18,616 nucleotides of DNA from Candidatus Micrarchaeota archaeon (GTDB lineage Archaea > Micrarchaeota > Micrarchaeia > Anstonellales > Bilamarchaeaceae). Position 1 is the first letter of the stretch; each line of letters begins with the position of its first letter. Shown here piece after piece: positions 3,001-6,000 of the stretch. The DNA lies in the NCBI GenBank assembly GCA_038046805.1, contig JBBSVO010000003.1, positions 1-18,616 on the forward strand, written 5' to 3'. Position numbers: made by a program.

Positions 3001-6000
3001 TTGGGTGACAGCTACGCAAGCACCATCCTTGCATGTTTTTCCCTCACCGCAAGAAAGTTTTGCTGTTTTGTACCCGGTAGGCGTGCAAACGAACTCGTTT
3101 ACGCCTCCATCAGCACTGCAAGAATCACTCTCTGAGTATTGTGTTCCATCCAAAGTTGTTCCGCTCACAGTCCCCTTTTTATTGAGATTCGAACCATCGG
3201 TATCGGTGCATTTCGGAACCGAAGTCTCTTTTTTTATACATGCACCGTCTTTGCATGTTTTTCCTTCCCCACATTCCTCACTAATAGCAAGGGGATTTAT
3301 TTTATCAAAACAATAATATTCCATTACCTTTGAGCCGGACACACAATAATCGTCATTTGCGTATGTGTCCCCGTTTGAGAGCACTCCTGTTACCTTCCCC
3401 TTATCATAAAAAAATTTTCCTCCATCCGAATCAGTGCATGATGCATCTGCACTAGAAGCGATTCCAACATTCAATAAAACAAACAGAAAAAACACACTGA
3501 TAAATCCGGAAAACGGGCTGTTTGGATTCATAATACTCACGATTATACTCTTATCGCGAAGTATATTAACTTAACGCTTAATCCCCATACTTCTTTTTTA
3601 CTTCTTCAATTCTCTTGTCAATGCCTTTCTCGGCCTCAAGTCGCTCAAGCTGGTATTCACTCATGTCCACGAATTTCATGTGCGCGGAAAGATTCGGATG
3701 GACACGCTTGATTTCGAGATGGATTTGCTGAGCGATTCTCCTATAGTCTATATGCCCCTGCGGCATGCTCCTTAATTCGCAGAAATGATATGCTGCTCTC
3801 AAATTCATTGAAATATACCAGCGAATTTTGTAGGCAAGCGGAACAATATACTGAGCCTCGTGCGGAAATTTTGATTCTAATTTTTCAAATGCTGATTTTG
3901 TTGTTTCCATCGCATCGCGGAATTCTTTTTCAAATCCGAACTCAGGGATTTCCGGGGGCAAATCATAACCATGATGCGTTGAAAGAAGCTGGCGCTCCTG
4001 CGTAAGCACGCGTTGGCGGTGTAAATCTCGATACATCCCGTAGTTTCCTAGAATATCAAATGTGTAATTAATATTTTCAAATGCCCGCCCTGGCCTGTGG
4101 CGGCGGTTCGTTCTACGCACGCAATATTCGTCAATTATTTTTTTTCTTTGTTCCGCATTCATTGAATCAACTTTGCAGAGAATGGCTTCGAGAGGAAGGT
4201 GAGAATGCTGATAAAGTATTGCCGCAACTGCCTTCTTTTCCGAGATTTCATTTGAGTCATAATAGACAAGAGTTACGGAATTTGCAGGCGGGATTGAATC
4301 TGTGCTGCCGGCACCCTCTCTCGCAATCGCATTTATCGCTTTCTCGGTTTCCGAAATGTAATCTTGCTGGATCTTTCCGTACTGGTCATTAGCACGCTTA
4401 ACAAACGAAGGTATCACTTTTGATAATTCCACGTGCATTTCCATTGCAATGTGTCTTATTTCCGCCAGCGGATGAGCATACATTTTCATTATCAGGTATT
4501 CGAATGCACGTCCGTTTCCGAAAAGACCCAGATTCGTTATCGTTCCTGCAGGTAGGATGCCGCGGAGGATGTCACATGTTTTAGCACGCACTGTTGATGC
4601 GTAGGCACGTTCGCTAACATTAGAGTCCCGCGGATATTTTTTCATTATTTTTTCCGAAACTTTTGGAATAAGTGTGGAGTATATGTCAAAAAGCCCGGTG
4701 GCAGTTCTTTTATATAAATCCGCAAACTCAGCACCATCTCCCCCGCAAAGCGCAGGTTCATCAAGATAAAGATAGTGCCCATTTGCATCTTTCTGATCAA
4801 AATACACGTAGCGCGTGGATTTTTCCAATGGAGAAATACCGATTCGTGCGTCCTCGATTACCTTGGAAGCGATTATCGAAACGTTTTCAACTGCAATGTG
4901 CGCTCCTGCGAGTTCGGCAACGCTGTCATCCCCGAATCCGACAAGAACGCGATCATAGAATTCCTCTGCCTTTTTTATTGCCACTAATTCATCAGTTCCA
5001 TGCTTCGAAACATCGTAATTCACGATTTCATGGAATCCGGTTTCCGGCTTGTTGATAAACTCGTCAAATAAAACACGTCTAAGACTCTTTTGACTTCTGC
5101 TGTATCTTGAGAAAAGCGCACCCATCACTACTTCTGGGAGATTTTTAAGGGCAAAGATTGATTTGTCAGTGTTTGTCATGAATCTTGAGAGGATTGTTTT
5201 CTCTTCTTCAGTGAATTGTTCCATAATTAGCACCATAGCTATTGCGGGCGTTTGGTTTTAAAATCTGAGTGGAGCAAAATAAATAATACAATACTGCTTA
5301 GAGCCGAGTTCAGTTTGAAACTGCTGTTTCAAATCACTCGGCATTCTTTACACTTATGCCGAGTTCGCATAACCTGGTAGTGCGTCGGTCTTGAAATCAT
5401 ATTGATTTTGAGAACTTGAGAACGAAGCGTCGTTCTCATGGTCTTGAATTAGATAAATTTCAGGATAACCGATTCCCCTGTGGATTGTAGGTTCAAATCC
5501 TGCACTCGGCGTTTTGCGTTCAAAACGACGAATCTTGAACGCTTGACTGTCGTTCAAGGCTTCGGCGTATTGTTTTTATCTAGGGTGAGTACATGGTTTT
5601 TGAGAAGATTTTGTTTTCCTCTGTCATTTTAATTTTATTATTGATTGCTGGATGCACACAACCGGAAAAAAATGAAATAAAGGAAAGCGGGATTGCGAAA
5701 ATTGTAAAAAACATTCCGGCCGAAACGAGCGGAACAACTCCAACTTCTGCGCCAAATCCAAAATCATCAACACTGCGCGGGTTCAGCCTTTCACCTAAAA
5801 GTTACGAGGGCAAGGATTTTACCGGATTCTTTGAAAAGGTAGCCAAAACCCAAAACTTGGAACGCGGGACCGTCATCTCCTGGGCCGGTGACTGGAATGA
5901 ACTTGGAAACGAAAAGGGCGGCCCGGCAGTAGTGATGGAACTCGCAAAACAATATAATTATGTCCCGCTCGTGGAAGCCCAATTTTTCACGCAATCAACC

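Follow-up and report, generated by a model that had tools for sequence, protein, structure and literature searches.

GA-flanked hairpin cassettes at tRNA- and protein-gene ends in Micrarchaeota, possibly a guided single-strand DNA element

Repeats at tRNA ends are known from enterobacteria. A literature search that scarcely covered subscription papers and included no supplements retrieved neither a description of the cassette reported here nor, among the papers listed, one of 'tRNA-linked repeats'. Closest among the described systems are hairpin elements. In IS608, a guide sequence 5' of the hairpin selects the insertion site by base pairing, which can be extended to 12–17 nt by design, according to the accessible part of the account (PMC5934647). 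For REPs, guide pairing by the sequence 5' of the hairpin has been proposed (PMC8266576), and PATEs as well as IS605-type elements insert without target duplication (PMC3119063), as far as the available sections of both sources describe it. New here is a core of the form GA-hairpin-NN-GA joining tRNA and protein-gene cases in one genome, together with strand, guide and synonymy counts.

The locus lies in a window of 18,616 nt, the whole stretch of DNA analyzed, from a genome of 1.2 Mb in 16 contigs with a completeness of 86% (G000). Here, a hairpin is placed between a divergent gene, presumably ThyX-like judging from its N-terminal sequence, and tRNA-Ser(UGA) (Table 1). It folds at –22 kcal/mol (z –6.61) with none of 200 shuffles being as good, and an exact direct copy of 9 nt together with an inverted one of 7 nt, both inside 120 nt, is found at only 1 of 112,069 GC-rich pseudo-starts of the genome, a chance of about 1 in 100,000. 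By fold and rarity of layout, the hairpin described in the initial annotation is thus real. Its counterparts at tRNA-Leu(UAA), tRNA-Leu(GAG) and tRNA-Met are also present; leaders of 32 delimited tRNA genes contain four clean and two loose hairpins, versus 3 of 1552 in a cross-pair control. These genes, fewer than the 39 of the initial annotation, were delimited by motif, since ARAGORN gave no tRNA at the locus by default and, when relaxed and allowing for introns, 237 mostly false calls. The tRNA-Ser(UGA) gene itself scores 40.3 bits with Rfam RF00005, is called by ARAGORN with introns and folds into a cloverleaf with a long variable arm. All 40 nt of the hairpin are unchanged in the same-genus genome G001, while spacer and introns differ, as had been noted for a sister genome; this 40/40 identity fits a long residence under selection as well as a recent spread. 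The hairpin is not an assembly artefact, as it is unchanged in contigs from two independent studies, neither of them flagged as source. Neither an empty allele nor an excision joint was found at this locus in four runs (all contigs). Contigs of RNA run X16 cover 5459–5622 and 5981–6172 only, with 5303–5343 outside this cover, an absence without evidential weight, and a promoter and terminator scan (bacterial models on archaeal DNA) gave one site versus 0.8 expected and no terminators. Elsewhere in the window, another short palindromic repeat forms three tandem copies between two genes (1440–1560; further copies in C3, C6, C8 and C13), and two secreted cysteine-rich repeat proteins, paralogs that resemble each other at both termini, are encoded at 1573–3540 and 11274–12443.

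Table 1. Features at the tRNA-Ser(UGA) locus (positions in the window).
Feature	Position	Strand	Remarks
Divergent gene	3578–5236	–	presumably ThyX-like
Hairpin	5303–5342		between the divergent gene and tRNA-Ser(UGA)
Spare (distal) copy of tRNA-Ser nt 1–9	5303–5311	+	identical to 5358–5366
Cassette core	5310–5335	– (outward strand)	GA, 8-bp stem (5326–5333 with 5314–5321), AGCA loop, 2-nt bulge, GA
Inverted copy ('guide')	5336–5344	–	pairs with spare copy (7 nt) or live start (9 nt)
Spacer, now tRNA leader	5345–5357		loop of second hairpin; differs in G001
tRNA-Ser(UGA)	5358–5511	+	exons 5358–5395 and 5467–5511; 83 nt once spliced
Intron of tRNA-Ser(UGA)	5396–5466	+	at 37/38; 71 nt
Degenerate mirror-image cassette 3' of tRNA-Ser	5513–5568	+	spacer 5513–5524; inverted copy 5525–5531; 8-bp stem 5534–5541/5551–5558; 3'-end spare 5562–5568

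Read on the strand leaving the gene, the complete cassette consists of the live gene end (A), a spacer hairpin, an inverted A (the guide), GA, a palindrome, NN, GA and a spare A, with a size of about 45–95 nt, so that the hairpin upstream of tRNA-Ser is half of one. At this locus, the spare copy's final two bases (TC) double as the terminal GA of the cassette on the minus strand, tandem G.A pairs are predicted in the core, and the 9-nt pairing of the guide comprises the live tRNA start plus bases –2/–1. When 5303–5366 is folded with DNA parameters, the minimum has the guide paired to the live start. Bases 5336–5342 equal the 3' acceptor strand of the tRNA (5504–5510). The initial annotation has the hairpin folded as a minihelix, a term for 12 bp with a T loop. 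However, the structure has stems of 7 and 8 bp and an internal loop; bases resembling the T loop take part in stem pairing, the T-stem is short by 4 nt, and no helix of 12 bp ends in a T loop of 7 nt.

A pattern built from the commonest core has 14 matches in the genome studied and 17 in G001, with none in either for the reversed-pattern control; five further G000 cores have longer loops. The pattern is present in 26 of 64 family genomes (three of them chance-like), about a third of the family, at 0–1 matches per genome in the reversed control, and in 50 of 301 genomes of the phylum, mostly of the same family, many matches outside being non-palindromic chance ones. The GA..NNGA geometry gives 5 matches versus 0–2 for nine other dinucleotides. 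Searched across the whole of G000, the full arrangement of A, inverted A, hairpin and A occurs at four places, all of them tRNA ends, and two units behind tRNA-Ala on the plus strand have the same layout as the Ser unit on the minus strand. Beyond genomes, a metagenome scan returned 121 pattern matches (leading GA in 10) with one true cassette, at a tRNA 3' end, and a viral scan 123 matches (leading GA in 5), none with an outer stem. The spacer motif was also considered as a marker and is, alone, not diagnostic.

In line with the initial annotation, the hairpin varies with the acceptor stem of the tRNA that it precedes and is found again in relatives, with an upstream unit in 14 of 115 tRNA-Ser genes (about two of them loose) and a downstream 3'-end copy in 14 of 105. 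Both sets were drawn from public genomes via a 5' motif, found mostly in records of Micrarchaeota and other DPANN, and count some loci twice. Tandem arrays with differing inner hairpins exist (L014, L030, L089, L092). As separate observations, at L118, L121, L145 and L149 the leader together with as many as 28 nt from the start of tRNA-Ser is duplicated around other palindromic inserts lacking an inverted acceptor copy, and between the end of C7 and the start of C8 the G000 assembly is broken by free-standing tandem copies of a 57-nt unit with two hairpins, with similar units, without gene copy, in G001.

Cores having an outer stem number 68, of which 16 are located at a tRNA start and 12 at a tRNA 3' end (13 by motif, one of which proved to be a mis-called protein start and was removed). 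A tRNA start on the inward side was found in none of the 68, two 'inward' flags being the next core in an array. Orientation is always outward from the gene and mirror-wise at tRNA 5' and 3' ends. Duplicated protein-gene starts comprise those of an HTH protein, CDC48 and Dph2 in G000 and of GatE, TyrRS, HisH and a metallo-hydrolase in relatives, where all names but the last are putative, taken from N-terminal sequences. Hence, the idea of a tRNA leader element is not supported, as the same cassette is found downstream of tRNAs and at protein-gene starts. At one HTH-gene start, 8 of 30 family genomes, an odd variant among them, have a hairpin insert along with a duplication of the start, the inner hairpin differing from genome to genome, and six cassettes duplicate a single 13-nt end of a probable box C/D sRNA (boxes assigned by eye; Rfam gives sR3 with E 0.41, which does not reach the cut-off). 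At L162, L166, L169, L156, L384 and L385, the probable sRNA is unannotated; its D guide complements a tRNA anticodon loop, and its 3' end is the recurrent target. A direct copy of at least 5 nt accompanies 45 of 64 palindromic cores and one of at least 7 nt 32 of 64, the duplication varying from 5 to over 25 nt.

For these observations, we favor, with some reservation, a non-autonomous mobile cassette of single-stranded DNA, guided to gene ends by its inverted copy. The outward strand would fold as single-stranded DNA, a trans-acting enzyme would bind the G.A-kinked hairpin, and the guide would base-pair with A, thereby choosing the site. With cleavage and ligation inside A or shortly beyond it, a small circle might then be freed and reinserted; this would follow the scheme of IS200/IS605 and REP systems, apart from the single hairpin and the guide of 7–11 nt. 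The order of retained target, element with guide 5' of the hairpin and element-borne far-end copy would correspond to the one described for IS608 in the accessible part of the source (PMC5934647). We propose that only outward copies survive because only these position the spacer to stand in for a leader or ribosome-binding site that was displaced. Within the pre-tRNA, a cassette would be a passenger leader, presumably trimmed by RNase P.

Pairing between guide and live end is strand-biased. In 58 complete cassettes, the non-Watson–Crick pairs on the outward strand are G.T in 23 versus A.C in 2 cases and A.G in 17 versus C.T in 1, counts that include related, non-independent genomes. Upstream units of the tRNA-Ser set, which was found without the GA pattern, give the mirrored result on the transcribed strand (A.C 10 versus G.T 2; C.T 5 versus A.G 2), the seven downstream units being too few for a strand comparison. 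Accordingly, the 3' strand of the hairpin is often mismatched where pairing works only on the opposite strand. Loops on the outward strand, most commonly GAA, CGCA and AGCA, are 65% purine; of 73 cores, 46 have A as the final and 9 have T as the first loop base. GNA loops and tandem G.A pairs are known to stabilize DNA hairpins. The stems suit the outward DNA strand and not the transcript. Transcription does not set this bias, since the outward strand is antisense for upstream but sense for downstream cassettes; the G.T and A.G excess could, however, stem from strand-biased mutation instead of selection on pairing.

These pairs also bear on a host-selected RNA switch, whose inverted copy would pair with the spare or the live start and control the folding or processing of the tRNA or the initiation of translation, the spare start at protein genes driving a short upstream ORF. 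Two alternative folds of similar energy, the 40/40 conservation in G001, a GGTGA motif often present in spacers at protein starts and a spare start in C7 of G000 that opens a short ORF ending 7 nt before the live start are all in line with such a switch. Since upstream cassettes have the poorer pairing on the strand that is transcribed (mismatches of the A.C and C.T type), mirror-wise cassettes also occur downstream and about 88% of tRNA-Ser genes are without a unit, we nevertheless regard it as improbable.

Comparison of the copies gives further information on their history. Where live and spare copies differ, the guide matches the live one only at 17 positions and the spare one only at 6 (p 0.03); in a first pass still including mis-assigned copies, the numbers were 18 versus 12, which is not significant. 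The inverted copy thus follows the live end more than the spare. At protein starts, 16 adjacent-copy pairs with 101 codons, excluding start and junction codons, show 26 synonymous versus 3 non-synonymous differences. In a dead duplicate, most changes would be expected to be non-synonymous, so that the spares must either have been functional gene starts or still be subject to selection; such a bias is also expected under the continued, selected translation of an RNA switch. GatE in G001 has two cassettes and three synonymous variants, whereas the empty G000 allele equals the middle G001 copy in its leader and first codons and the live one in its later codons, pointing to a crossover inside the repeat. 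At tRNA and protein ends alike, G001 has cassettes whose counterpart sites in G000 are empty. Under the favored reading of a guided single-strand cassette, strand exchange at varying points in A might let cassettes gain working gene-end alleles from other lineages.

Alternatively, dedicated targeting may be dispensable: a dispersed palindrome would insert, replication slippage or template switching at this site would generate the direct and inverted copies, and later exchange with DNA of related lineages, by crossover in the short repeat, would combine a foreign live end with the resident spare. Each gene having its own matching copies is explained in this way without retargeting, and a duplication length varying this widely, guides that also match leader bases –1 to –4 and the 43 of 101 palindromic cores without full layout, some due to chance and some guide-less in hairpin clusters, are all compatible with it. 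Long variable target duplication has, moreover, been described for other cargo, according to the part of that study available (PMC2853133). On the other hand, local duplication does not predict that few sites are used repeatedly across genera (the HTH start, the sRNA end), that the guide adjoins GA at a fixed position and that the synonymous bias persists within guide-paired bases, and we consider it unlikely, albeit less so than the RNA switch.

The initial annotation had seen in the hairpin a second tRNA copy lacking its middle, either functional or kept alike by gene conversion. As a relic of tandem tRNA duplication, it would be either a minihelix that can be charged or an intermediate on the way to gene permutation, in line with the 5' identity over 7–13 nt, the T-loop-like stretch and the existence of tandem arrays; the core may even descend from an ancient tRNA 3' end, and tandem duplication is the published path to permutation in the accessible part of the model (PMC3978253). 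Yet the first nine bases of the core, reverse-complemented, give the T-loop-like stretch, which occurs at non-tRNA sites, too, with the same core at non-tRNA genes. In addition, the base after the 3' strand, taken before as the discriminator, usually complements tRNA position –1 (A with T, G with C), the match extending longer in L112, L132 and the tRNA-Met of G000, with Leu(UAA), L087, L096 and L114 as exceptions. Most outer stems contain mismatches, and neither a T-stem nor a 7-nt loop nor a 3' half is found. A role as raw material for permuted genes is likewise not supported, as the upstream anticodon-arm or T-arm half required by the permutation model, in the portion of the source available, is missing (PMC3978253). 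Altogether, a tandem-tRNA origin seems very improbable.

Insertions into the anticodon region deserve separate mention. Within the tRNA-Ser(UGA) intron, the anticodon arm is directly repeated over 9 nt (5387–5395 = 5440–5448), accompanied by a wobble-paired inverted copy (5406–5413) and a dispersed 9-bp hairpin (5417–5438) also present at C13:25493–25525; by sequence, this content would be a degenerate cassette-like insert. The intron at the corresponding tRNA-Ser site of G001 is short. At L175 (G256:C86), a 42-nt cassette with a 9-nt duplication is situated within a tRNA anticodon loop, a canonical BHB not being visible by eye. Long tRNA introns of G000 (e.g., C3:97879–98167, C6:233010–233187, C7:18711–18919 and C6:32696–32910) have a homologous palindromic module in common, which is as intron transposition predicts for different tRNAs, and some of the genes reach 250–400 nt. 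The arrival of archaeal tRNA introns is stated as an open question in the available part of a 2026 preprint (10.64898/2026.10.13.758758), and the cassette-like duplications in the tRNA-Ser intron and the L175 loop represent a candidate route of intron gain. A bolder version of the favored reading, a DNA-guided retargetable single-strand mini-transposon of 50–90 nt that directs its own guide of 7–11 nt against the conserved ends of essential genes, homes across genera, swaps ends, forms arrays and seeds or extends tRNA introns by landing in anticodon loops, is possible, though we hold it to be rather doubtful at present.

A mobilizing enzyme was not identified in Y1, integrase, IS110 and long-form searches. 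The core signature is absent from 30 Y1-transposase and 3 integrase loci, a search for a long element bracketed by the two copies gave none, and G000 (86% complete) has no IS110 transposase and a single Y1 gene (C3:134483–134830) with no core within 1.5 kb. Among these incomplete and related genomes of the family, a Y1 transposase is found in 11 of 23 with cassettes versus 7 of 41 others, and a reverse transcriptase, as an equally weak trend, in 11 of 23 versus 9 of 41; seven cassette-bearing genomes have neither. Both trends being weak and equal, co-occurrence is uninformative. Also noted in G000 are a reverse transcriptase whose two frames break at a poly-G tract (L554, C11:460–1592) and which looks DGR-like, many family members matching Pfam across one same partial range, and three tyrosine recombinases of 402–403 aa (L321–L323), one encoded about 150 nt behind a tRNA gene of C4.

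If the favored reading is correct, a tRNA curiosity would become a general DPANN mobile-element family with gene ends as safe harbors. With the inverted copy as guide, the corresponding enzyme would be a compact DNA-programmable integrase, and the bolder mini-transposon version would provide a natural counterpart to the engineered extended-guide IS608. In any case, spare copies are prone to mis-annotation as tRNA fragments, att sites or upstream ORFs.

Several further classes were compared and rejected. A MITE has terminal inverted repeats and a short target duplication of fixed length, whereas the cassette ends vary with the target and the duplications from 5 to over 25 nt. An armless tRNA does not agree with inner loops of 3–5 nt that lack a constant anticodon. 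A minus-strand box C/D or K-turn RNA does not match in geometry, the bulge being 2 nt and on the wrong side for the C/D motif, and an integron attC is excluded by the missing conserved outer boxes. Permuted tRNA genes and minihelices resemble the cassette in having a 3' acceptor strand upstream of the 5' strand and able to pair with it, but upstream of tRNA-Ser only 7 acceptor bases are present, without 3' half or splice motif, and the downstream gene is complete.

Restriction-modification units have in common with the cassette a direct duplication of variable length and a transposase that is not visible, but their duplications exceed 30 bp, surround whole genes and come without guide or hairpin core, as far as the accessible part of the report describes them (PMC2853133). 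As with attL/attR elements such as the one with a tRNA-Thr 5' fragment in Caldiarchaeum, a gene end is duplicated and restored, the insertion leaves a spare 5' or 3' gene fragment, and donor and recipient copies are mismatched; the Caldiarchaeum insert is, however, 1.8 kb long and recombinase-encoding in the available description (PMC3293823), whereas the units here measure 45–125 nt, with neither integrase nor cargo between the two copies, and the cassettes, below 100 nt and non-coding, carry an inverted copy and also target protein genes.

REP/BIME elements with TnpA-REP (RAYT) and Rickettsia-type palindromic elements are, in the parts of the literature available, likewise short dispersed imperfect palindromes that are strand-specific and form tandem arrays, with a functional bulge and cleavage on either side (PMC8266576, PMC3733652). 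Unlike in REPs, a GTAG or CGTC tag is absent from the hairpin foot of the cassette, which consists of target-derived sequence, i.e., the outer stem, followed by GA, and the cassette sits at gene ends with a replacement copy. With IS200/IS605 (IS608) and PATEs, it has in common an irregular hairpin on one strand, strand specificity following here from the G.T/A.G and loop bias, a sequence 5' of the hairpin foot able to pair with a site to one or the other side, an insertion point 3' to the target, which is retained, and a small size, mobile forms of 52 bp being described in the accessible sections (PMC5934647, PMC3119063). In contrast to the fixed tetranucleotide of IS608, the guide is a plain complementarity of 7–11 nt specific to each target gene; there is a single hairpin instead of two ends, direct copies of the target are common, and no Y1 element end with a matching hairpin was found in the loci searched. 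The cassette thus lacks a defining feature of PATEs, REPs, MITEs, integrase islands, permuted tRNAs and minihelices alike; by analogy, it would work most like a REP or PATE combined with a gene-end-restoring island.
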